Source of the DNA: an uncultured delta proteobacterium
GTDB taxonomy: Bacteria; Desulfobacterota; Binatia; Binatales; Binataceae
Assembly: GCA_963711565.1 (NCBI GenBank)
Contig: CAVQEQ010000001.1
Location: 576,001-640,000, forward strand
Reading direction: 5' to 3'
DNA length: 64,000 bases
Shown: positions 14,026-26,454 of the stretch, one piece after another
Layout of the letters: each line of letters begins with the position of its first letter
How positions within the stretch are numbered: the stretch's first letter is position 1
Made by a program: the position numbers and the translations under genes
The notes under the pieces: generated by a model
The model's input: only the letters and a program-made list of their open reading frames with translations
What the model was told of the DNA's origin: nothing
Database searches by the model: none

Positions 14026-14277
14026 TTTTTTCTACCTTGTCGGGAGATTCGAGCGGAACACTTCATGCAGATCCCGACAACTTGAAACTACAATTGGTAT
14101 TTCAGAATGTCAAAATTTATGGTCCAGTTAACATAAATGAAGTGCTGAAGAGAACATATTAACTGGATATAGCCGATTACTCACTTACTATACTCGACGA
14201 TTACCCAGCGGCGATGGGAGACGTTGCCAAACCTCGATCTTGCCGCTTCAGCGATAGTGGGCAACCATATTTCCGCA

Positions 14278-15153
14278 ATGCCCACGCGCGATCATCGCTT
14301 CACCGTCTCGTCGCGATCCGAACTGCTGCCATATCTGCTTACCTTGCCGCTCGGACTCTCGCGCAAACAGGCAAAGGATCTTCTGCGCTTCCGCGCGGTC
14401 ACCGTGACTCGCGTCCATGCTGTCAGGCACGACACGCAATTGGAGTCGGGCGACGTTGTGACTATCGCGGCGGGCAAGCAGGTCCCGGCCGCGTCGCTCG
14501 AGCGTCACGGCTTGAAGATTGTCTATCTCGACGATCACATCGTCGTCATCGACAAGCGCGCGGGTCTCCTGTCGATGGGCTCGGAGGGCGAGAAGGAACG
14601 CACCGCCCATCGGATTCTCAACGATCATCTGAAAGCGCTCACCAGCTCGCCGTCGCAGCAGGTCTTCATCGTGCATCGCCTCGATCGCGAGACCTCCGGC
14701 CTGATGATCTTCGCAAGGAGCCGCGCCATCCAGGCGACTCTTCAGGAGAACTGGAAGCGCATCACCAAGAAATACCTCGCCATCGTCGAAGGCGTACCCG
14801 CGAACACCGAAGGGACGCTCCGCGACAACCTGGTCGAGAGCAAGTCGCTCAGGATGCATCGCGTCGATCGCGGCGGCGAGTTGGCGATCACGCACTACCG
14901 CGTCCTGCGAAAGGGTCGGGACAAATCCCTGCTCGAGCTGACGCTCGAAACCGGCCGCAAGAACCAGATTCGCGTGCAGCTCGCCGGCCTGGGACACCCT
15001 GTCGTCGGCGACCGCAAGTACGGCGCTGAAACTGATCCAGCGCGCCGCCTCGCACTCCATTCATGCGAGCTAACCTTTAACCATCCCGTGTCCGCCGCCC
15101 CAATGAACTTCCACAGCCGAATGCCCACCCGCCTTATAGAGACCCTCGCATAA
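14278..15153 (+). CDS. RluA family pseudouridine synthase
   Basis: HRLDRETSG catalytic motif, TGRKNQIRVQL, VVGDRKYG, LALH. Confidence 0.93.
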   Translation: MPTRDHRFTVSSRSELLPYLLTLPLGLSRKQAKDLLRFRAVTVTRVHAVRHDTQLESGDVVTIAAGKQVPAASLERHGLKIVYLDDHIVVIDKRAGLLSMGSEGEKERTAHRILNDHLKALTSSPSQQVFIVHRLDRETSGLMIFARSRAIQATLQENWKRITKKYLAIVEGVPANTEGTLRDNLVESKSLRMHRVDRGGELAITHYRVLRKGRDKSLLELTLETGRKNQIRVQLAGLGHPVVGDRKYGAETDPARRLALHSCELTFNHPVSAAPMNFHSRMPTRLIETLA

Positions 15154-15166
15154 CTCCGCGATTGTC

Positions 15167-15200
15167 CCCCTTCCCTCGAGGGAAGGGGTTAGCGGTTAGG
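15167..15200 (+). repeat. REP-like hairpin, family A (CCCCTTCCC-N-GGGAAGGGG...GGTTAGG)
   Basis: Perfect stem just after the rluA stop; related copies at 17628, 17694, 17920, 21874 and 21977. Confidence 0.7.
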
Positions 15201-15269
15201 TTGACCGCGATGCTCGACCCGCGCGGGCGGGATTGAGATTCAGCCTGCCGCAGGTTCAGTATAGAAATC

Positions 15270-16157
15270 ATGGCGGCAACGTCGCTGGAACAGTTCCTCG
15301 AAAAGTACCGCGACACAATTGATCGCCTGCATTCCCTTAGCAACGCCGCTGCGTGGCGCGTCTCACGAACGTCTTTCGCCGCCGCGTTGTGGCGCAGCTT
15401 CGATCGCCGCTTCGGTGCCGATTCGAACGCCGTCACGCGCGCGGAAGCCGTGCGCTTTCTCGACTCTCTGCATGCCGCCGATCTCGCGCTCGCCATCGGA
15501 TGCCGCGACGGCGACGCCAGTGCCTGGCGTCATCTCGTCTCGACCTATCGCGCGCCCATCGACGCGTTCGCACGGGCCGTCCTCGGCAACTCCTCGCGCG
15601 CGAGCGAGATCGCCGATTCGTTGTGGGCCGACCTCTACGGTTTGCGCTCATCCGACGGCGCGCGCCGCTCTCCCCTCGAGCATTACGGCGGCCGTAGCTC
15701 GCTGACGTCGTGGCTCCGCGTCGTCGTCACCCGGCTCGAAGCCGATCGATGGCGTGCGACGCGCCGCATGGAACCGCTGGACGAGGAGCGCGACGGCGGT
15801 TCCGGCTTGCTCGCCGACGGGACCGATTCGCCCGACCCCGATCGCGCACGGTTACTTGGCGCCCTCGAACGATCTCTCGCCGAAGCTTTGAACGCGCTGT
15901 CGCCGGACAACCGTCTGCGCCTCTCATATTATTATGTGCAGAATCTGACGCTCGCCCAGACCGCCGCTCTGCTCGGCGAGCATGAGTCGAGTGCGTCGCG
16001 CAATCTCGCCCGCGCCCGCACGGCGATTCGCGAGTGTGTCACCCGCACGCTGCGCCGCGAGTATCGCTTCAGTGACGATCAAATCAGCCAATGCTTCGAG
16101 TATGCGACCGGCGATTGGCCGTTCGACCTCGGCCGCATGCTCGCACTGGGAAAATGA
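15270..16157 (+). CDS. ECF-type sigma-70 factor with N-terminal extension
   Basis: ADLALAIGC..GD..AW, region 2 (YGGRSSLTSWLRVV), region 4 HTH (LTLAQTAALLGEHESSASRNLARAR). Confidence 0.85.
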   Translation: MAATSLEQFLEKYRDTIDRLHSLSNAAAWRVSRTSFAAALWRSFDRRFGADSNAVTRAEAVRFLDSLHAADLALAIGCRDGDASAWRHLVSTYRAPIDAFARAVLGNSSRASEIADSLWADLYGLRSSDGARRSPLEHYGGRSSLTSWLRVVVTRLEADRWRATRRMEPLDEERDGGSGLLADGTDSPDPDRARLLGALERSLAEALNALSPDNRLRLSYYYVQNLTLAQTAALLGEHESSASRNLARARTAIRECVTRTLRREYRFSDDQISQCFEYATGDWPFDLGRMLALGK

Positions 16158-17545
16158 TGCCCGACGACAAGACCCCGCACAGCCGCCTTGACGCGATGAT
16201 TCGCAGGAGTCTCGCATCCGGCCTCGACACCTCGGGCGCACAATGCCCCGACGCCGACCTGCTCGCAGCGTTCGCCGAAAACACGCTCGCCCCCGACGAG
16301 CGCACGAAATGGAATTCGCACATCGCCGGATGCGCGATATGCCAGCGCCAGCTTGCGGCGCTCGCCCGAGCCGGTGCGCTCGGCGCTACGCGTTCATCTG
16401 CTCCCCAAGTCGAAACCGTTGACGCCGAAGAGGCACGCCAGGAAGCCGGCGGTTTCTGGCCCGCAATTCGCAGCTTCGTACGATTCATGATCGGTCCGTT
16501 CCCGCTCTCGGTCGCCCTTCACGTCGCGCTGCTGCTCGTTCTGATCATCACCATCCACGAGCAGCGCGGGCGCGAGTTGATCATGGTGAACCTCGAAGCG
16601 GGCGGCGGCGGCGGTGGCGGCAACGAGATGCAGGATCTCGACATGCCCGAAGTGCCGATGCCCGACACGGCGCCGCAGCAGATGGAGCAGCCGACCGCAG
16701 TGGATACCTCGCAAGCCGTGGGCCTCGCCAGTGACTACGTCCGCGCAGCCGGCGGCGGCGGTATCGGCATCGGTCGCGGCGGCGGCATGGGCTCGGGCTA
16801 CGGCCACGGCATCGGCTCGGGCTTCGGCGGGTTCATCGGCGAGTTGCGCCGCAAAGGACTCGACGTGGTGCTGGTGATCGACGGCACCGGCTCGATGCGC
16901 CTGATCATCGACAACGTCAAAGCCAAGATGCAGCAGCTGACGCAGTCGATTCACCGGCTCGTGCCGATCGCCCGCATCGGAATAATCGTGTTCGGCGGCA
17001 AGGGTGAGAAGATGGATATCCAGCCGCTGACGCTATCGCCGCAGAAGCTGAGCACCTTCCTGGAAGGCATCCAGGCAAAGGGCGGCGGCGAATGGGAAGA
17101 GGACACGCTCGGCGCGGTCCAGACCGGGATCGACAAGATGGACTGGAAGCCATACGCCAAGAAGGTGGTGGTGCTGGTCGGCGACTCTCCCCCGCGCACG
17201 GAGGACTTTGCGCCGCTGCTCGCGCTGATCCGGCAGTTCAAAGCCAACAACGGGACGTTCAACACGGTGGACGTCGCGGCGGAGGAGCACGAGCGGTTCG
17301 AGCGCGAATTCTGGCTGAAGGTGCATCGAGAGGAGCCGCCGAAGATCTCGGCGTTGCCAGCGTTCTATCGACAGACTCAAGCCGCGTACAAAGTGCTCGC
17401 CACCGCTGGCGGCGGCTCGATGAAGTCGTTGAGCAAGGACGCGCACATCAACCAGCAGGTGCTAATCCTCGCCTTCGGCGACCAATGGCAATCGCAAGTC
17501 GCCGCCTTCGCCCGCGGCCTGAACAACACCAGCTCAGGTCCGTAG
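16154..17545 (+). CDS. zf-HC2 (ZAS) anti-sigma domain - TM - vWA domain fusion protein
   Basis: ATGA overlap with the sigma stop; HIAGCAIC (HxxxCxxC); TM with SVALH; Gly-rich linker; MIDAS DGTGS, GGGEWEE, VGDSPP. Confidence 0.85.
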   Translation: MMPDDKTPHSRLDAMIRRSLASGLDTSGAQCPDADLLAAFAENTLAPDERTKWNSHIAGCAICQRQLAALARAGALGATRSSAPQVETVDAEEARQEAGGFWPAIRSFVRFMIGPFPLSVALHVALLLVLIITIHEQRGRELIMVNLEAGGGGGGGNEMQDLDMPEVPMPDTAPQQMEQPTAVDTSQAVGLASDYVRAAGGGGIGIGRGGGMGSGYGHGIGSGFGGFIGELRRKGLDVVLVIDGTGSMRLIIDNVKAKMQQLTQSIHRLVPIARIGIIVFGGKGEKMDIQPLTLSPQKLSTFLEGIQAKGGGEWEEDTLGAVQTGIDKMDWKPYAKKVVVLVGDSPPRTEDFAPLLALIRQFKANNGTFNTVDVAAEEHERFEREFWLKVHREEPPKISALPAFYRQTQAAYKVLATAGGGSMKSLSKDAHINQQVLILAFGDQWQSQVAAFARGLNNTSSGP

Positions 17546-17598
17546 CAACTGTCGGGCGCTTCTGTTTCCTCCTTCCATCGTGGAATGTCGACTGAGGG

Positions 17599-17770
17599 GT
17601 AGGACACAGCGCGGCAGAATCGCTGTTCCCCCTTTCCATCTGGAAAGGGGGCGAGGGGGATAGGACAGCCCGCACCGCATCGCTCTATTGCTTCCCCTTC
17701 CCCATTCCTGGGGAAGGGGCTAGGGGTTAGGGCTCTGCCAGAAGTGGCACTGGCTTCAGCCAGTGATTCT
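17599..17770 (+). repeat. Cluster of REP-like palindromes (GTAG-type, two family A copies, one GTGG-type)
   Basis: CCCCCTTTCCA-TC-TGGAAAGGGGG; CCCCTTCCCCA-TTCC-TGGGGAAGGGG; GTGG-CACTGGCT-TC-AGCCAGTG. Confidence 0.7.
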
Positions 17771-17801
17771 CTGCTTCGGCCGAAATCCTGTCCGCACACA
17801 G

Positions 17802-18194
17802 CGATGACTTCGTCACACAGACCGACGGTTCAGGACGAGGTAGCGCTACAACGGAGCGCAATGCTAGCACAATCAGGAATCACTGGATGCAGGGGTCACC
17901 CCTGCCTCTTAATCTTGCTCCCCTTCCCGCGAGGACCGAAAAAAGGGGCCGGGGGTTAGGTTCTTGATGAGCGTGCAAACAAACGGTCAGCGACGATTCA
18001 CGGTGCTCGAGCTGCCGTTGTTGGAGATGCCGACCAGCTCGTCGGCGCAGTCATAGCCGTAGTTAAAGGCCGCTTGGGACGCTGGCGTCATGGTGCTAAT
18101 CGCGCTCGCGACAACCGCCCTCGCCGGCCCGGCCCTCGCCTACAAGGCAATAGTAATGGACCAGCCCCAGGCCGACCCAGCCGCCGTCTTCTAA
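17802..18194 (+). pseudogene. Internally deleted copy of the 20887-21810 region (membrane-protein gene plus upstream DNA)
   Basis: 17802-17906 matches 20887-20998, 17970-18017 matches 21013-21060, and about 18094-18185 matches about 21716-21806. Confidence 0.85.
18002..18100 (-). pseudogene. Isolated RHS/YD-repeat fragment
   Basis: Minus strand reads ISTMTPASQAAFNYGYDCADELVGISNNGSSST (Y.YD..D.L..I pattern). Confidence 0.6.
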
Positions 18195-18607
18195 CCCGGG
18201 CTCCTCTGATGCCAGCGATGATACACACTATAAGCCGCTCCTACGCAGATCAGTACGACAGGGGTGAGTGTCGAGAAAAGCACGAAGCCCAGGCGAGTCT
18301 CCAGGTCCGGAATCCACGACGTCAAAAGTTCAGAACATGAGAGGATGACGAGCGCTAACGCAATGGACATCGCAGTAACAAACGCTCCCCACTCATCCGG
18401 AAAATAAGAACGAAAGAAGGTGGGCAGAGCCGCAGAAAGTATGAGACCTGCCGTGTACTCCGCCTCGATGAGTCCCGTCAAAGTCGAAACCGTTAAGCCT
18501 ATCAACAGGCCCACAAGGCCGAGATAGAACTCGAGCCAAAGCGGAAAACGCCCCTTATGGTTCAGTTTGCGACTCAATGCACTCAAACTCCTTGGCCTGC
18601 GCCGCAA
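18191..18607 (-). CDS. Four-TM protein, putative immunity protein for the RHS C-terminal module
   Basis: Directly downstream of and overlapping the toxin-like ORF; hydrophobic; lower GC; start uncertain. Confidence 0.6.
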   Translation of the reverse strand: MRRRPRSLSALSRKLNHKGRFPLWLEFYLGLVGLLIGLTVSTLTGLIEAEYTAGLILSAALPTFFRSYFPDEWGAFVTAMSIALALVILSCSELLTSWIPDLETRLGFVLFSTLTPVVLICVGAAYSVYHRWHQRSPG

Positions 18608-19502
18608 TTTGACATTTGGCCAAAACGCTGACTGACGCAGTAGCAGTCATTGTCGCAACGCGGCCGCCGCATACGAGAAGGTCAGCTCCGTCTGTGAAAT
18701 ACGCGCCGATTCCGCATGCAAGCTCTGCAGCTCCTCCTAGCAAACCCACTTTCGCTTCTGCGTTCTTCGAGCAATCTGCCATGTCAACTATGTATTGCTG
18801 CTGGCAAGATAATTTGGGCTGTTCCTTCTGCAGCGGACGCGCATTGGGGCAGGGAGCAGGATCTCCGCAGAATTGCGGCTCGCCTGAAGACTCCATCGTT
18901 GGAATCTCACCGTCGGTGATACCCAAAATAACTGGATACAGCGGGTGGCGGCCGTGGAGCAACTGACGTGGAGTCGGAGGAGCGCTGTCGCCGCCGCCAA
19001 AAATCGCATCAAAGATGTCGAACAGACCAAACGCGGCAGTCACGATGATTCCTGGGATCGCCCCGGCGGCCCAAGCCGCAGCAAAGATCTTCGGCTCCAG
19101 CACTGCCAATATTCCGGTCAGTGCGAGATTAGAGGCACTCGAAGCGGCTGCAGCTATTCCGGCATCCCCCACGGCAGTTGGGACACCGCCGCTGCCCGAT
19201 GGCCGCGCGATCGCATTGCCCGCAGGGCCGCTGTTGCTGCCGCTGGTACTGGTGGCGCTGGTCTCGGACAACGAGCGGACCAGTTGCGGACTATAGAACT
19301 GTCCGCCGCCTGAATAGTAGTACGTCCCCGGATCGGTATATTCCTTCTCCATGCCTTGGTACAGGAACGGCCAATCGTTCGCCGTGCCGCTCACCGTCGG
19401 CGTTCCTGACGGATCGTAGGTGTACGTTGTCGCCGGCGGCGAGTCCACATTCGCGGCGTTCACCAGACCGAGCGTTGACCCGTCCGCGTCGAGCAGCGGC
19501 AC
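18555..19502 (-). CDS. Orphan RHS core fragment with variable Cys-rich C-terminal tip
   Basis: LDADGST, YTYDPSG, PFLYQGMEKE and YYY...QFYSPQLVRSLS match the RHS-associated core; begins abruptly 3 nt after the upstream stop. Confidence 0.75.
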   Translation of the reverse strand: MPLLDADGSTLGLVNAANVDSPPATTYTYDPSGTPTVSGTANDWPFLYQGMEKEYTDPGTYYYSGGGQFYSPQLVRSLSETSATSTSGSNSGPAGNAIARPSGSGGVPTAVGDAGIAAAASSASNLALTGILAVLEPKIFAAAWAAGAIPGIIVTAAFGLFDIFDAIFGGGDSAPPTPRQLLHGRHPLYPVILGITDGEIPTMESSGEPQFCGDPAPCPNARPLQKEQPKLSCQQQYIVDMADCSKNAEAKVGLLGGAAELACGIGAYFTDGADLLVCGGRVATMTATASVSVLAKCQIAAQAKEFECIESQTEP

Positions 19503-19505
19503 CGT

Positions 19506-19754
19506 TTACGGTTTTGGAGGTGGATCACTCTTAAGTTCATCCGGCACGATGTCTGGGTACATTCGGTACAGGTCATTCGAAAAATTTATCGTATCGACCA
19601 AACATTGGCCGATTAGGCCTAGATACTTATGCCTTTCCTCTGCCGATATGTTGCCTCGCGCAACGTTGTTACTCATATAATCCGAGATCGAGCCAAGGCT
19701 GGCACGGACTCCTGCCAAAAGCGAATCAATTCTTAGTGCAAAATCTCGTTTCAT
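19506..19754 (-). CDS. 82-aa helical protein, putative immunity protein
   Basis: Low GC; GAGG RBS; lies between the two toxin-like modules. Confidence 0.6.
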   Translation of the reverse strand: MKRDFALRIDSLLAGVRASLGSISDYMSNNVARGNISAEERHKYLGLIGQCLVDTINFSNDLYRMYPDIVPDELKSDPPPKP

Positions 19755-19817
19755 TTCGACCTGTTCCTCGTTTCACGAATTGCAAACATCTCATCACGAT
19801 CGGGTCATAGGCTCAAC

Positions 19818-20415
19818 TCAGAAGCCAGCAGCGAAGCCCAATGCTCTAGCTAAGCTCGGCAGTAAAGGTATGACGACCCACCAAGGCGATATCTTCGGTA
19901 CTTGAAAATTAGAAGAGCTGTCCGGAACTGTATTGTGGTTCCGTGGGAAATAGGGCCTCCATTCTGGATAATCACCCGTCCCCATACATTGATTGTAGCA
20001 CCTATAGAACCACATTGACTGATCGGGCGCTTTGTCTCTATTTATTCCCCGCTCCAGCGCCAAATCTGTGCATCGTGCCTGGCACCATTGTGCGTTTCCG
20101 GGACCGTCGCTGGTATTGTCGACAATTTGTTGGAGGGGTGCTGGATTGCACGGCGTCGATGGAGCCGTAGGTTCAGATTCGGTCGATGCCGAGGAGCTTT
20201 CGGTTGGGGTTTCGCTAGGCCGAATCTGCAAAATCTGGTCGTACAGCGGGTGGCGGCCATGGATCATCTGGCGCGGGATCTCCAGGCTACTGCCGCCGCC
20301 TCCGAATAAGTCGTCGAAAAGCTCATACAGACCAAACGTGGCTGCCGCTAAAGCAACATATTCAACAATCGTAGTGAGAGTCGTAGAATCGATATTGGTT
20401 GACTCGCTATTAGAG
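19818..20415 (-). pseudogene. Second orphan toxin C-terminal module (5'-truncated)
   Basis: Shares FGL...FD..FGGG.S....PRQ..HGRHPLY..IL.I...E.PT..SS with 18555..19502 and then diverges; no credible start. Confidence 0.7.
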
Positions 20416-20877
20416 CGCCGGATGCGTGCGCATAGAGCCTGGACCAACTGCCGCTCAGCTGCCACTCATACTCGGCTGTCTTGGCCGCGCCGTTCATGTC
20501 GATGCGATGCTTCATGGGCAGGCAGACATAGTTCTCTCCATACGCAAATCGAGCGATCCGTGCGACTGCTCGTTTGGGAACAATCTCGGCAATAAAAACC
20601 ACACCTCTGCGATCCTCACATCATGTTCTTTGCGGCGAACGTAGAATCGCAGGTTCACCTCATCAAAATCGGTATGAAAGGGAATAGGAACATATCCAAA
20701 GAGCTTTGTGCGGCAGAACCGGAAGCCCACCAGGCTGACGTATGTCCTTCCCTCAAATGAGTCCAGCACGGTCCCCGCCGGAACATGGGCGTCCAGGAGT
20801 TTCGCATCAACCTCGTGATTCAACATCACCAAGTCTAGCCACTCGGCGGAAAGGAAGACGCGTTTTCGCTGGCCCAT
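20416..20877 (-). pseudogene. DUF2071/YqjF family gene, frameshifted and 3'-truncated
   Basis: FLSAEW.DLVMLN, YVSLVGFRF, EVNLRFYVRR; continues in another frame (VFIAEIVPK...YGENY) after about 20605; cut off by the toxin module. Confidence 0.8.
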
Positions 20878-21015
20878 TTGTTCGACCGATGACTTCATCA
20901 CACAGACCGACGGGTCAGGGTGATCGCACGAGGTAGCGCGACAACGGAGCGCGATGCTAGCACAATCAGGAATAACTGGGTGCAGGGGTCATCCTGCCGC
21001 GTTGAAGTGGTAAGC

Positions 21016-21831
21016 GTGCAAACAAACGGTCAGCGACGATTCACGGTGGTCGAGCTGCCGGTATTTCCAATCGTAATGGAATCGTTGCTGATGCCGTTCC
21101 GCTATCTGCCCGAGCTGGCGAAATTCGGCTGGATTCCCTTCGCCGCGATTCTGGCGATCGATCTCATCTGCTATGCCCTCCTGCGCGAGGACGTTTCCAG
21201 GAGCGTGACCAGCAGTCTGATGACGCTCGCGCATTTCGTTCTGTTCACGCCGTTCTCCGTGGCATGGACGAAGCTCGCCGTCAGAGGCCCTCAAGCAGTC
21301 TCGAAGCATCCGCAGTTCTTCTACTCGCGCACGCAATGGTTTTATCTGCTGGCAGGCGCAGCGATGATGGTGGCGCTCCTGGTTCTCGTCGGCATTCCGT
21401 TCGTCGTCGTTCGTTACGGACAGCGAAACTTTGAGAGCCAGATCACACTGCTCGGAGAAACCGGTATGATGCTGGGAATCGGCCTTTACGTTATCGGATA
21501 CGTCCGCCTGGCTTTTGTCTTCCCCGCGATTGCGATCGGCAGGTACGCCGGCATCCGGGCTGCCTGGAGGCAAACGGCAGGAAATATCGAGCGCCTCGCG
21601 GCAATTATCGTGCTCACGCTCCTTCCCTACTGGATCGTCCGCCAGGCGTTCTCATGGTACATGGGCTATCACCCGCCCGGCGTCATCGAGGCGTTCCGCG
21701 GATGCATCGACATGCTGCTAATCGCGCTCGCGACGACCGCCCTCGCCGGCCCAGCCCTCGCCTACAAGTCGATAGTAATGGACCAGCCCCAGGCCGACCC
21801 CGCCGCCCAATCAATCACCGCCGCCCGCTAG
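21016..21831 (+). CDS. Multi-pass membrane protein (GPDPase membrane-domain-like)
   Basis: About six hydrophobic helices; RLAFVFPAIAI...IRAAWRQTAGN pattern; GTG start. Confidence 0.7.
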   Translation: MQTNGQRRFTVVELPVFPIVMESLLMPFRYLPELAKFGWIPFAAILAIDLICYALLREDVSRSVTSSLMTLAHFVLFTPFSVAWTKLAVRGPQAVSKHPQFFYSRTQWFYLLAGAAMMVALLVLVGIPFVVVRYGQRNFESQITLLGETGMMLGIGLYVIGYVRLAFVFPAIAIGRYAGIRAAWRQTAGNIERLAAIIVLTLLPYWIVRQAFSWYMGYHPPGVIEAFRGCIDMLLIALATTALAGPALAYKSIVMDQPQADPAAQSITAAR

Positions 21832-21873
21832 CGCCCTAGAGGAGACCTCTGCATAACTGCGCCGCGTATCTTC

Positions 21874-22011
21874 TCCTCTCCCAGGATGGGAGAGGATCGA
21901 AGGTGAGGGTCCTTATACAGCGCGCGATTTTTTTCGCGCGCGATTCAAGATTCTGCCTCTTATCTTTCATCCGGTTCCCCTCTCCTGAAGGGAGAGGTGT
22001 TAGGGGTGAGG
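21874..22011 (+). repeat. Two REP-like hairpins, family A variant (CCTCTCC-N-GGAGAGG...GGTGAGG)
   Basis: Located between convergent genes; TCCTCTCCCA-GGA-TGGGAGAGGA and CCTCTCC-TGAAG-GGAGAGG. Confidence 0.7.
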
Positions 22012-22047
22012 TTCCGCCCACGATTCTCAAAAACCGCCCACTACCCG

Positions 22048-24144
22048 TCACCCGCCATTCCATCCGCGGTCCCGCAATGCCTCGAGCGCGATTGCAAGAT
22101 TATTTTGTGTCTTCTTCCAGTCACTCGGTAACTTGTCTTTGGTCAATACGGTCAGCGCCTGATGATAGTTATCGACCGCCGCTTCCAGGTATTTGACTCC
22201 CGGCCCACGCATGCCGAGTCCTGACAAGGCGTCCCCAAGATCGCTCTTGGCTCGTGCCCATAGGATTGGATCGCGGTCGGGTCTGAAGACTTCGAGCGCC
22301 TCGTTGTAATTCTGAATCGCCTGCTCGAAGCACCAGGATTCATTGGTGCTCTCTCCCATCTCGTCCAACGCATTGCCGAGCCCGGCTTTCAACGTCGCCC
22401 ACGCGATCTGATCGCGCTCACGCGATTGCTCTTCGAGACTGGCCCGAAACGCCTTTACGGCTGCCTCCGGATAACGCGGGTTGGGCTGGACATCGTTCAA
22501 ACTCAGCAGTTCGTTGCCAAGGACGGCCTGCATAGCCGCCCAGCGATTCCGATCCCACTCGCGCGGAAATCCATCCAGTGTTTGCCTGCTGATCGCCACC
22601 GACTCCTTGAGATCTTCGACGTCCGAGCGAGCCTGGCCGCGTAACTCGAGAGCCTCTGCGAGTTGCGCTTGAGCGTCTGCCCAGAGCATCGGATCCGACT
22701 GCTTCGTGTAAACTTTTAGCGCCTCTCTGAAGGCCTCGATCGCATTATCGTAACCACCTGCGTTATCCTCGCGATCCGCCAGCCCGCAAAGCACAGATCC
22801 CAGCTGTGTCTGAGCCGCCGCCCAGCTCATCGGGTAGAACTTAACGTCGAAGCCTTTCACTGCGGCGCGACTATAGTCCGCCGCTTGATGCAGGCTCTCA
22901 GTTCCTGCTTCATGATTTGCAATTTGCTGGAACGTGCGTCCGAGCTGCAGTTGAACCGTCGCCGAATCGAGCGAATCGGAACGCCCCTGGTACACCCCCA
23001 ACGCATCCTTGTATGCGGCCACCGCCTCCTGCAAAGGCCCCACTTGAGCATTGAGAGCTGCGATTTGATTCAGCGCCGCGCCCAGGTTGAGCTGCGCCAT
23101 CGCCCACTCCAGCGGATTACGTTCTCGCGTCCAATCTTCCTGCGCTCGCCGAATGTAAGTGACCGCGCTATTCAACGAATCTTCCGACTTGAGTTCGACT
23201 CCCGAGATTCTGCTCGCAATACCGATCGCGAGATTCACGCGGGCGCGTGCGTCGGCCGTCCACGCACCGCTCTTTCGGGGATCGTCGGCGAGCGCGCGAA
23301 TCTCGCGAATTGTAGGTTCGAGCGCATCGCCAAATTTGAACATCCACTGGTGCATCGAGTCCGCGCTTTGCGTTGCTACGATCAGGCCGATCACCTTGCA
23401 TAGGTCGTCCGGCGGCAACTCCGGCAGCTTGAAGTCCGATGGAAGATACACTCCGCCAAATTGCGCATCGGATCCGAATTTCGTCTCGTAAAGCGGCCCA
23501 ACCGCTGGCGGCGATGCGCCGCCCACCCCGCCCCAGATCAATGCCTCCACCCGCACGTTCGTCACCGAGTTGAGCGCATCGAGATGCGCGAGACCCTGCG
23601 GACGGCCCGAAACCGCAATCGTGGAATTCAAAATGACCGGCGTGATGTGCAACCTCGGATCGATATTCGACAGCGCGTCGCGCAGGCGTGCTTCAAGCTG
23701 CTGGCCTTTGTCGCCTTCGAGATGCGCGATCGCAAAGACGACGCGGATGCGCCACTTTTCAACGTCTGGGTACGGAGCCGACGCCTCCGCGATGTCCGCC
23801 GGCGCTTCGCGCAGCACGTTCGGACCCCGCAGATAGATCGAGGTTTGCTGCAGGATCAGCAACGGCAGGCAAACAATCGCCGCGATACCGGCGCCTCGCC
23901 GCACCGCCTTATAGCGCAGCTTGACCCGCCCGATCTGGACGCGCGCCTTATGCCAAAACGTAAGGCCGCACACGATCGCGGCAACCGATCCCGGAATCGC
24001 AGTTACGATCACCAGGTCGACCACCACCCGCGACCGCGGCCAGACGGCCACAACAACCAGCACGATCACGCCGGCAACCGCAAGTGAATCAGCAAGATTC
24101 ACCCCCGGAAACCGCTCAAAAAAATCCCGCCGCAGACTCCTCAT
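22048..24144 (-). CDS. Membrane-anchored tetratricopeptide-like repeat protein
   Basis: Three N-terminal TMs; about eight repeats of P..WA..Q..LG..L...........A...Y..AL. Confidence 0.85.
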   Translation of the reverse strand: MRSLRRDFFERFPGVNLADSLAVAGVIVLVVVAVWPRSRVVVDLVIVTAIPGSVAAIVCGLTFWHKARVQIGRVKLRYKAVRRGAGIAAIVCLPLLILQQTSIYLRGPNVLREAPADIAEASAPYPDVEKWRIRVVFAIAHLEGDKGQQLEARLRDALSNIDPRLHITPVILNSTIAVSGRPQGLAHLDALNSVTNVRVEALIWGGVGGASPPAVGPLYETKFGSDAQFGGVYLPSDFKLPELPPDDLCKVIGLIVATQSADSMHQWMFKFGDALEPTIREIRALADDPRKSGAWTADARARVNLAIGIASRISGVELKSEDSLNSAVTYIRRAQEDWTRERNPLEWAMAQLNLGAALNQIAALNAQVGPLQEAVAAYKDALGVYQGRSDSLDSATVQLQLGRTFQQIANHEAGTESLHQAADYSRAAVKGFDVKFYPMSWAAAQTQLGSVLCGLADREDNAGGYDNAIEAFREALKVYTKQSDPMLWADAQAQLAEALELRGQARSDVEDLKESVAISRQTLDGFPREWDRNRWAAMQAVLGNELLSLNDVQPNPRYPEAAVKAFRASLEEQSRERDQIAWATLKAGLGNALDEMGESTNESWCFEQAIQNYNEALEVFRPDRDPILWARAKSDLGDALSGLGMRGPGVKYLEAAVDNYHQALTVLTKDKLPSDWKKTQNNLAIALEALRDRGWNGG

Positions 24145-24208
24145 TGTGCCTTAACGCCGGTGATATTAGCGCAATCGCCACGCCTAGCCACATCTCCAGC
24201 CCTTGCTT

Positions 24209-24306
24209 GAAGTGGCACCGGCTTCAGCCGGTGATTCTTTCGCAGCATCAGGGCAGGAAACAAAAAGTCACTGAGTGCAGAGCCTGTCCTGAGCGAAGCC
24301 GAAGGA
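24209..24306 (+). repeat. GTGG-type REP hairpin plus a CCTGTCCTGAGC-N-GCCGAAGG element
   Basis: 24209-24238 is identical to 17741-17770 except for one compensatory base pair. Confidence 0.65.
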
Positions 24307-24679
24307 GGTCACCCCTGCGTGACAATCGTTGTCATCCCTCTATGCCATAATAGCGACATGTCTGGTCTCCCATTCCCACCAACACACCTACCCCAGCGGC
24401 ATCTGCCTCCCGCCAATATGCGCTCACCATTCGCAGCAACTTTACTCTTTGTGATCCTCAGATCCGCGCTTTCTCCCAATGGGTTTCTTTCCTCACCAGT
24501 CGCCTGCACGGAAGAAAACGAAGAGAAAGAACAAATCACTTTTATTCTCAGTTCAGAACATTGTTTGTTTCTATCTCGGCACCTCGGAAAACAAAATCGC
24601 AAGAAAATCGCACCTCCTCCGATCTTAGTTTCAGGGAGACGCCGGGGCTTTCCGCCGCCTTGGCGCGAAGGAGGATGCG

Positions 24680-25867
24680 ATGATTCCGATCCTGGTTGTC
24701 TGCCTCGCCGTGTCCGGTTCGATCGTGATCGTAGCCTTCGCATGGACCAGGATTCGCGGCCTTCCTATCGCCCCCTCGATGCCACCCGGTCTGCGCAACG
24801 CGGCCCGCTTTGCCGGCGGCCCGTTTTCGATTTCGATCGCGATCCACCTCGCGATCCTGCTCACGCTCATCGTCACCGTGCATGAGAGCCGCGCGCGCGA
24901 CCTGCTGATCGTCACATGGGAGCCGGGTTCCCTTCGTTCGGTCGAAGAGGCTGAGCCACACGAGATTCCCGACGTGCCGATGCCGGAGTTCAACACCAGG
25001 ATACCCGACGACTCGCCCCAGCCCGTGGACGTAAACAAGGTGCTCGGCGCCAACTCCAGCGCAATCGCCGGAACCTCGTCCCTCAATGGAATCGATATCG
25101 GCCGCGACCTCGTCTCTTACTTGAATCTCCACCCAGGACCCGGCGGCGACGGTGGCGCGAGCTTTCCATGGTTCATCGACGAGCTGCGCCACAAGGGTCT
25201 CGACATCGTGCTGGTGATCGACGGCACCAAGTCGATGGACTTCGTGATGGCTGACGTGAAGGCGCGGATGACGCGGCTCGCGATACGAGTTCGCCAGCTC
25301 GTGCCGATCGCGCGCGTCGGCGTCGTCGTGTTCGGTGGCAAGGGCGAGCCCCTCGACATTCAGCCGCTGACTCTCTCGACCGTAAAACTGCAAACGTTCC
25401 TCGGCTCGATTCAGGCCAAGGGTGGCGGCGAGTGGCAGGAGAACACGCTCGGCGCGGTGCAGGCCGCCGTAAACAAGATGGATTGGAAGCCATACGCGCG
25501 CAAGGTGATCGTGTTGATCGGCGACTCCCCGCCCGAGCAGGAAGACTTCGCCCCTCTGCTCGCGCTGCTCCACGATTTCAGGCGCAACAACGGCACGCTG
25601 AGCGGCGTCGACGTCCAGGCTGAAGAGCATGAGCGCTACGAGCGAGCGTTCTGGATGAAGGTGCATGGCGTCGAGCCGACGCTGGCCGAAATCGGGCCGC
25701 TGCCCGAATTCGCCAGACAGGCCCAGGCCGCCTACAAGGTGCTGGCGGCCGCGGGCGGCGGCTCGGTCCGTAGCCTGAGCCACGACGCCGAGGTCAATCA
25801 GCAGGTGATGATCCTGGTATTCGGTGATAAGTGGCAGGACGAGGTCAGCCGGTTCGCGTCGAGGTAA
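24680..25867 (+). CDS. Membrane-anchored vWA domain protein, paralog of 16154..17545
   Basis: GAAGGAGG RBS; TM with SIAIH; LDIVLVIDGTKSM, AKGGGEW, MDWKPYA, IGDSPP. Confidence 0.85.
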   Translation: MIPILVVCLAVSGSIVIVAFAWTRIRGLPIAPSMPPGLRNAARFAGGPFSISIAIHLAILLTLIVTVHESRARDLLIVTWEPGSLRSVEEAEPHEIPDVPMPEFNTRIPDDSPQPVDVNKVLGANSSAIAGTSSLNGIDIGRDLVSYLNLHPGPGGDGGASFPWFIDELRHKGLDIVLVIDGTKSMDFVMADVKARMTRLAIRVRQLVPIARVGVVVFGGKGEPLDIQPLTLSTVKLQTFLGSIQAKGGGEWQENTLGAVQAAVNKMDWKPYARKVIVLIGDSPPEQEDFAPLLALLHDFRRNNGTLSGVDVQAEEHERYERAFWMKVHGVEPTLAEIGPLPEFARQAQAAYKVLAAAGGGSVRSLSHDAEVNQQVMILVFGDKWQDEVSRFASR

Positions 25868-26073
25868 CGGTGGCGCCTTGTGGCAAACAAATGACACAGC
25901 GATGCGATTCTGACGGCTCGCGACGCTCGCACGTCCAGCTCGTCTCGACGCTAACAACTCGATTCAGACCGATGATGCGTGCGACTGACCGCCGCAGCCG
26001 GTCGTTGGTCGAGTGGGGCATTGTTCGCCGACCGCTGAGTTATCGTGGCACGCAACTTGGTTTAATCAATCGC

Positions 26074-26454
26074 GTGAGCATCGAAACCACGAACGTTCCG
26101 GCGATCGACATGCACGCGATTACCCAGATCGCGGAAATCGATGGGGCGGGTGACCAATTCGTAGCCGAGATCATCAAGGTCTTTCTCGCCGACTTGGGCG
26201 AACGCGTGCGCGCAATCGGACTGCAAATGAGACAGAACGATCTCGTCGGAATTGCGGCGACGGCACATGCTATCAAGGGCGGCTGTGGTCATTTTGGCGC
26301 GTCGCACCTGGTTGAGCTATCTCAAGAACTTGAAGACCGGACGAAGCGCGACCCAACCGGCGACCTTCAGCCCGCGATCGATTCGATGGTCGCGGAAACG
26401 GAACGAGTCCGCGCCGCGCTGGAAGCTTATCAATCGGAACGTGAGCCGCGATGA
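26074..26454 (+). CDS. Stand-alone Hpt (histidine phosphotransfer) protein
   Basis: AHAIKGGCGHFGA...L...SQELE motif; GTG start inferred. Confidence 0.85.
   Translation: MSIETTNVPAIDMHAITQIAEIDGAGDQFVAEIIKVFLADLGERVRAIGLQMRQNDLVGIAATAHAIKGGCGHFGASHLVELSQELEDRTKRDPTGDLQPAIDSMVAETERVRAALEAYQSEREPR

Follow-up and report, generated by a model that had tools for sequence, protein, structure and literature searches.

A predicted ECF anti-sigma factor of the Binataceae built from a motor-linked vWA transducer

INTRODUCTION

Some ECF sigma factors are controlled through the Ton machinery, as in cell-surface signalling of the FecR type, where TonB acts on the outer-membrane receptor. Putative anti-sigma factors of group ECF255 likewise link ECF control to Ton-type machinery, and those of groups ECF226 and ECF289 are encoded at position +1 from an ECF sigma gene and combine one membrane helix with an external vWA domain, as described in the available parts of PMC7826278. 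In Myxococcus xanthus, DdvS and DdvA are a coupled pair of an ECF sigma factor and a single-pass zinc anti-sigma factor with a CHCC motif (available parts of PMC6061681 and PMC11506125). A further class, the vWA force transducers encoded beside tolQ-like and paired tolR-like genes, was predicted in 2025; in the part of the source drawn on here it is a computational class with no phenotype, and the word 'sigma' is absent from the main text (PMC12204202).

Here we analyse a window of 64,000 nucleotides (the whole stretch of DNA under study) from a soil bacterium of the family Binataceae. A sequence-only reading had picked out an ECF sigma gene and a partner gene, which we call F, and had suggested that F joins a zinc anti-sigma (ZAS) domain to a TonB/TolA-type helix and a periplasmic vWA domain.

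RESULTS AND DISCUSSION

An ECF sigma gene overlapping a predicted anti-sigma gene

The ECF-type sigma gene (window positions 15270–16157, plus strand, 295 aa) has extensions at both the N- and the C-terminal end. Its product matched Pfam Sigma70_r4_2 (E = 3e–7), and the general superfamily TIGR02937 was the sole NCBIfam model whose cut-off it passed; the best NCBIfam match, TIGR03001 (Myxococcales sigma family 1), stayed below its cut-off (90.2 vs. 154.6 bits). Among named relatives, records of Candidatus Binatus and of Binataceae are the closest, and dN/dS of the sigma gene in 12 same-genus genomes was 0.19. As had been noted from the letters, the sigma stop and the F start (ATG at 16154) overlap in ATGA. 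Of 26 loci, 18 had a 4-nt overlap of the F start with the sigma stop and 4 had an overlap of 1 nt; at the remaining 4, mostly at frameshifts, our script had chosen another start or stop. The overlap predicts translational coupling of F to the ECF sigma gene, a criterion of ZAS-type membrane anti-sigma factors.

A promoter scan found no sigma-70 site before the sigma gene. Immediately 5' of the sigma start is a conserved element with an inverted repeat (15229–15269), which has no obvious ribosome-binding site and in which the scan made no call. The usual upstream neighbour within the genus is a gene for an RluA-type pseudouridine synthase (14224–15153), and REP-like palindromes lie on either side of the locus (15167 and 17694), their pattern giving 158 overlapping matches genome-wide.

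Domain anatomy of the fusion protein

F (16154–17545, plus strand, 463 aa) consists of the zinc anti-sigma domain, the TonB/TolA-type helix, a linker and a vWA domain; the HxxxCxxC motif, the S-V-A-L-H helix and the Pro/acidic/Gly spacer that had been called from the sequence were all present. The motif C31-x24-H56-x3-C60-x2-C63 (16244–16342, plus strand) had all four of its Cys and His residues invariant in a 61-sequence alignment. The Pfam zf-HC2 (PF13490) score lay under the cut-off (14.5 vs. 22.2 bits), and F was outside the five zf-HC2 matches of the genome. The best PDB profile match of the ZAS part was the anti-sigma factor DdvA, a weak match (E = 0.029). Within the same genus (12 genomes), dN/dS of the ZAS core (residues 12–75) was 0.14. 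An AlphaFold model of F from 61 homologs (mean pLDDT 63) gave the N-terminal domain helices at residues 8–26, 34–41, 47–59 and 61–72, with pLDDT about 80 over 31–70. By its coupling and its zinc-ligand motif, F is predicted to be a ZAS-type membrane anti-sigma factor.

An amphipathic helix and a transmembrane helix follow (16454–16558, plus strand). The single hydrophobic stretch of F (Kyte-Doolittle windows >1.5 start at residues 108–120) holds S119-V-A-L-H123, and its membrane pattern is S119-x3-H123-x6-L130, with these three residues at 16508, 16520 and 16541. For residues 111–137, dN/dS in 12 fusion copies was 0.05. Directly C-terminal to the helix, residues 141–148 (16574–16597, plus strand) make a candidate motor box, marked by conservation and position: I143, M144, V145, L147 and E148 were kept in all 67 fusion homologs (those of the best 120 protein matches that have HxxxCxxC in their first 170 residues), and the placement fits that given for vWA force transducers in the available part of PMC12204202. 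The model drew these residues as a low-confidence helix, with no strand. The fourth position of the SHLS pattern was V in 60, I in 6 and Y in 1 of the 67, and V in the stand-alone copy P described below.

The periplasmic linker (16559–16855, plus strand, about residues 136–234) is some 100 aa of Gly, Pro and acidic residues, recognised by sequence and by pLDDT, residues 142–224 being modelled as disordered (pLDDT <50). Pfam (VWA_2, E = 7e–9, residues 238–345), Foldseek, which matched the modelled Rossmann-type head to vWA domains, and conservation agree on the final domain (16859–17524, plus strand). The vWA fold previously claimed is thereby borne out; the MIDAS-like site is a DxTxS variant, D243-x-T245-x-S247 (16880–16894) with D344 (17183), not DxSxS, and the Thr position of the canonical site was not located. 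C31, S119, H123, L130 and D344 occurred in 67 of 67 fusion homologs and the DxTxS residues in 66–67 of 67.

A full transducer anatomy (helix, candidate motor box, linker of about 100 aa, vWA) fused to a predicted sigma-binding domain favours a reading by direct mechanotransduction, as had been proposed from the sequence alone. Here the helix would transmit torque of the motor, or tension on a vWA arm that has bound its target, and so free the sigma factor or unfold the head with no separate chemical signal. Metal-dependent vWA domains are often force-sensitive, as in integrin I domains and VWF, and this counts on the same side. We nonetheless hold direct force to be distinctly unlikely, since the 40-residue segment between ZAS and helix, which has low confidence (residues 77–100 at pLDDT <50) and varies in length among homologs, is ill-suited to rigid-body force, and since DdvA, the nearest characterised ZAS protein, is cut by RseP when truncation has removed its head, according to the available part of PMC11506125.

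Spread of the fusion

Of 165 Binataceae genomes, at least 41, from 7 of 30 genera, had a match to residues 1–140 of F (E up to 1e–25); the count is a floor, as three further loci (L127, L217 and L228) carry the fusion in genomes that fell below the E threshold. The fusion is patchily distributed in comparison with the helix-linker-vWA module, which was present in 142 of the 165 genomes, and it was not found in 24 genomes of the class outside Binataceae. The other 53 of the best 120 protein matches were of the parent type, and one of these seemed to be frameshifted. Within the 150 best representatives, only three of those long enough to score joined ZAS to helix and module, and these three came without taxonomy. 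A contig from a second study (run X5), spanning 15176–16639, covers the joint. Misassembly or chimerism at 16420–16470 was ruled out by this contig together with the family-wide full-length homologs, and the fusion is thus no peculiarity of the contig on which it had been seen. Several long-read loci carry frameshifts.

Origin of the two halves

The closest relatives of the sigma factor (36–45% identity) and of the ZAS domain belong to a widespread pair of a sigma factor and a ZAS-helix-Ycf48-like anti-sigma factor. The sigma factors of this sister family form a separate clade. Since its anti-sigma factors have a plain helix and a Ycf48-like head, the fusion appears to have replaced both helix and head with those of a transducer. 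SxxxH, which the earlier reading expected to be conserved if meaningful, was found in 67 of 67 fusion homologs vs. 0 of 12 sister anti-sigma factors, and this exceeds chance. A search of 131 representatives that have HxxxCxxC flagged five: three are of the fusion type, and two have the letters before the hydrophobic stretch. The genome under study has a gene for a ZAS-helix-Ycf48-like anti-sigma factor at C1:317868–318743 (L032), with no adjoining sigma gene and shorter than most of its relatives in intact pairs; a search of this genome did not find the sister sigma linked to Ycf48-like heads (one match at E up to 1e–20).

The same genome holds a stand-alone copy of the other half. This protein, P (C1:411755–412975), has 93% amino acid identity to F residues 111–463 and carries an extra N-terminal helix in place of the ZAS domain of F. 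Its gene is the fourth of an operon, after exbB and two exbD genes and ahead of a gene for a small exported protein; that the helix-linker-vWA half of F copies an exbB-exbD-exbD operon gene strengthens the TonB/TolA interpretation originally placed on the helix. In the ExbB of the P operon, residue Ser25 of the first helix, presumably the contact for the TonB His, was the same in all of 37 sequences. There are three ExbB/TolQ genes in the genome, just one of them linked to vWA copies. At 11 loci from other families of the class the module adjoins exbB, mostly with exbD and often with a large TPR protein. The small exported protein after P matched no Pfam or Atlas family, and a large TPR protein replaces it in distant relatives. 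One genus (L209–L216) has the operon in two parts, exbB-exbD-exbD-vWA at one place and a vWA gene with the exported gene at another, an arrangement which hints that the exported protein may partner the vWA head.

Concerted evolution of the fusion and its parent

F and P were compared in 23 genomes with both copies intact, splitting the module at residue 137 (three of the first 19 pairs had been left out for a frameshifted or partial copy). For the periplasmic part, F was closer to the P of its own genome than to any other F in 14 of the 23, the tree contained 15 same-genome F-P cherries, of which 11 had support 100, and a topology with F and P in separate lineages was rejected (AU test, P = 1.5e–62). 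The helix gave the opposite picture, with the own P closer than another F in 1 of 23 genomes and separate lineages not rejected (P = 0.18). Identical runs between F and P reached 722 and 732 nt, and the homogenised tract begins near residue 135–140. The heads of F and P differed by 0–1 residues in 8 of the 23 genomes, and at 14 of 315 residues in the genome studied here.

Trees of sigma, ZAS and ExbB gave the same main groups (17 genomes), from which we take the locus to be vertically inherited. Independent repeated fusions, considered as a source of the likeness between F and P, were ruled out because a single syntenic locus has passed down sigma, ZAS and helix together; repeated gene conversion, rather than repeated fusion, is the likely cause as judged from these comparisons. 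In a test of selection for identity, within-genome N/S was below between-genome N/S in two distance bins and above it in one. Gene conversion between similar copies can also be neutral. Concerted evolution that is limited to the periplasmic part points to a way in which a sensor may stay matched to the protein that it monitors.

An artefact of polishing or assembly is disfavoured as the source of this pattern, since whole F clades are sister to P clades, since the leftover differences in the closest F/P pairs are nearly all synonymous (107 vs. 4), and since both versions of the module were recovered in an independent run, where the pieces covering 17090–17358 showed 4 differences in one case and 21 in the other. 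The broader proposal that the fusion is a misassembly, or the non-functional relic of a recent recombination, draws on the likeness of the copies (about 90%), which can mislead assemblers, on the long-read frameshifts and on two loci with swapped flanks. We find it scarcely credible, and largely refuted, given purifying selection on every part, the spread over 7 of 30 genera, the contig bridging the joint and the two module versions of the independent run. At the two loci in question, L089 and L096, the downstream flanks are exchanged: after the fusion comes the exported gene that belongs to the motor operon, and after the parent comes the motif of the third copy T (see below). A crossover between the two copies would account for this, as would a misjoin of short reads. 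RNA contigs from two runs covered almost solely the module common to F and P, and their loose ends had P letters; they are therefore uninformative on F.

These results also bear on whether F needs a motor at all. A captured vWA domain might sense the ligand of P with no motor, release the sigma factor by ordinary regulated proteolysis and keep SxxxH for packing or dimerisation. Zinc anti-sigma factors readily exchange periplasmic heads (Ycf48-like in the sister family, TPR-CHAT in DdvA), the putative vWA anti-sigma factors of ECF226 and ECF289 are described with no motor link stated in the available part of PMC7826278, and the F helix has its own majority residues at positions 125, 126, 129 and 134. 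Against such a motor-free sensor, S119, H123, L130 and residues 143–148 are invariant or nearly so exactly at the described motor-binding features, and the helix lies outside the converted tract yet shows the low dN/dS given above; the SxxxH of F thus appears to be held by selection of its own, not by copying. We consider the ligand-only alternative somewhat unlikely.

A third copy and its promoter-like motif

About 7 kb of other DNA separates the fusion in the window from a third copy, T (24680–25867, plus strand), 55% identical to F, with two helices (the second with SxxxH), a linker and a divergent vWA domain. At 24 of 29 other loci the DNA fetched had T downstream of the fusion, mostly <1 kb away; it was absent from the fetched DNA at the other five, in two of which it is elsewhere or farther off. 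A stand-alone Hpt-domain ORF (25831–26454, plus strand; Pfam Hpt, E = 2.5e–14; true start uncertain) follows T here and in same-genus loci, and is possibly co-transcribed with it. The intervening DNA (17546–24598) contains two ORFs (18555–19502 and 19818–20465, minus strand) with small neighbours. The first of these we take to resemble an Rhs core with a variable tip; it had no Pfam match. A TPR protein is encoded at 22048–24144, and one is also found beside T at L185.

A candidate ECF promoter, GCAAG ... CGATCT (24599–24625, plus strand), lies 54 nt before T. The motif GCAAG-[AG]AA-n12-14-CG(AT/TC)[CT]T preceded T in 23 of the 24 loci, the single miss having one letter changed, and preceded exbB in 0 of 53; because the pattern was derived from the same loci, the 23 of 24 measures conservation, not prediction. 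The strict motif matched once in the genome. With a matrix this site scored 47.0 and the next 17.9, of which the low second score is the informative part, the training set having held the genome's own site. By strict motif and matrix alike, this genome has no second strong site that would indicate a broad regulon. The motif was not found at the extra vWA copies of 4 genomes without the fusion. A family-wide pattern scan gave matches in 105 of 165 genomes and was too loose for a test of co-occurrence; among the matches listed, those that recur away from T fall in coding sequence. In one genus the motif reads GCAA-n16-CGTCTT, a geometry that agrees with GTAA-n16-CGT, mapped as the DdvS promoter, and with the AAc/cGT motifs general to ECF factors, both in the available part of PMC6061681. 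T is likely the target gene of this sigma factor, which we infer to read the motif; the motif could instead serve another sigma factor.

Many ECF sigma factors are autoregulated. The motif is not found 5' of the sigma gene in this genome. In two other genomes, some 60 bp of the T promoter and leader recur before the sigma gene (L128:4940–5010 and L054:1330–1390), a copy that would make the sigma factor autoregulated there; T is cut short at L128.

The existence of three copies raises a further reading, in which F pairs or competes with P or T for motor sites or for the exported protein and so reads the stoichiometry of transducer to motor, with T as negative feedback. Such titration suits the retention of SxxxH in all three copies F, P and T, the linkage of one of the three ExbB/TolQ genes to them, and the small exported gene that accompanies a vWA copy where the operon splits in one genus. 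It is very unlikely in our estimate, the exported protein matching no family and being swapped for the large TPR protein in distant relatives.

A possible mechanism

The account that we put forward, and regard as evenly poised between right and wrong, makes F a sentinel anti-sigma factor that reports on the vWA transducer P, is docked on the same motor and induces T as a spare. The ZAS domain of F would hold the sigma factor, and F would dock on the motor of the P operon, with S119/H123 contacting its ExbB and residues 141–148 contacting ExbD. Its head likely binds the same target as P, assuming a shared ligand. Altered engagement, through stalling, loss or excess of the target, or pulling, might then expose the linker, and RseP-type intramembrane proteolysis would probably free the sigma factor; we propose this route on the precedent of intramembrane proteolysis in DdvA (PMC11506125, available part), and the genome has an M50 protease that matches the whole Pfam model. 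The freed sigma factor would turn on T, whose head differs and which would serve as a spare arm. The whole would amount to a sentinel-and-spare loop for a motor-driven envelope process.

More tentatively, and at less than even confidence, we suggest that the anti-sigma factor is a client of the ExbB/ExbD motor for which engagement by the motor, or pulling on the vWA arm, sets release, conversion keeps the head matched to that of P and the output swaps in a transducer with another head. If so, ECF signalling would gain a new kind of input, and the vWA force-transducer class would have a reporter built into the cell. If the docking holds true, the anti-sigma factor's own helix would link a Ton/Tol-type motor directly to transcription.

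Comparison with known systems

Our literature search, which covered sources outside subscription journals, found no description of an anti-sigma factor built on a motor-binding helix. That the architecture was unfamiliar to the sequence-only reading therefore stands for the fusion, and not for its transducer half or for other vWA anti-sigma factors, both of which are in print (available parts of PMC12204202 and PMC7826278). That reading overlooked P, the concerted evolution of F with it, and T with its ECF-type promoter motif.

As in DdvS-DdvA, the sigma and anti-sigma genes are coupled, and the promoter geometry is alike (PMC6061681). Unlike F, DdvA has a TPR-CHAT head and governs a defence island, as far as the available text goes. 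The putative anti-sigma factors of ECF226 and ECF289 differ in combining vWA with DUF3520, for which a search of F at E up to 0.1 gave nothing; their description makes no mention of a motor helix, and 'MotA' and 'TolQ' gave 0 matches in the available part of the PMC7826278 supplement. ECF255 proteins carry TonB_C, the receptor-binding end of TonB (PMC7826278, available part), whereas F has the predicted motor-binding end. The difference from signalling of the FecR type is that here the anti-sigma factor itself has the predicted motor-binding end.

The vWA force transducers, as set out in the available part of PMC12204202, are shared ground: F has the S, H and L of SHLS, the candidate motor box, a Pro-rich linker of about 100 residues and the vWA domain, and P adjoins exbB-exbD-exbD here and in relatives. 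F differs from them in adding a cytoplasmic zinc anti-sigma domain, in lacking the fourth Ser, and in adjoining a sigma gene rather than tolQ/tolR-like genes; since it does not show this synteny feature of the class, we describe F as built from a vWA transducer and not as a member. The locus ties a transducer copy to a sigma factor that has, as far as the motif shows, a single target promoter, and is thereby a potential reporter of motor docking, proton-gradient dependence and ligand binding for this transducer class. We place F within ECF/anti-sigma signalling, as a protein predicted to work like a ZAS membrane anti-sigma factor, and built from a vWA transducer.
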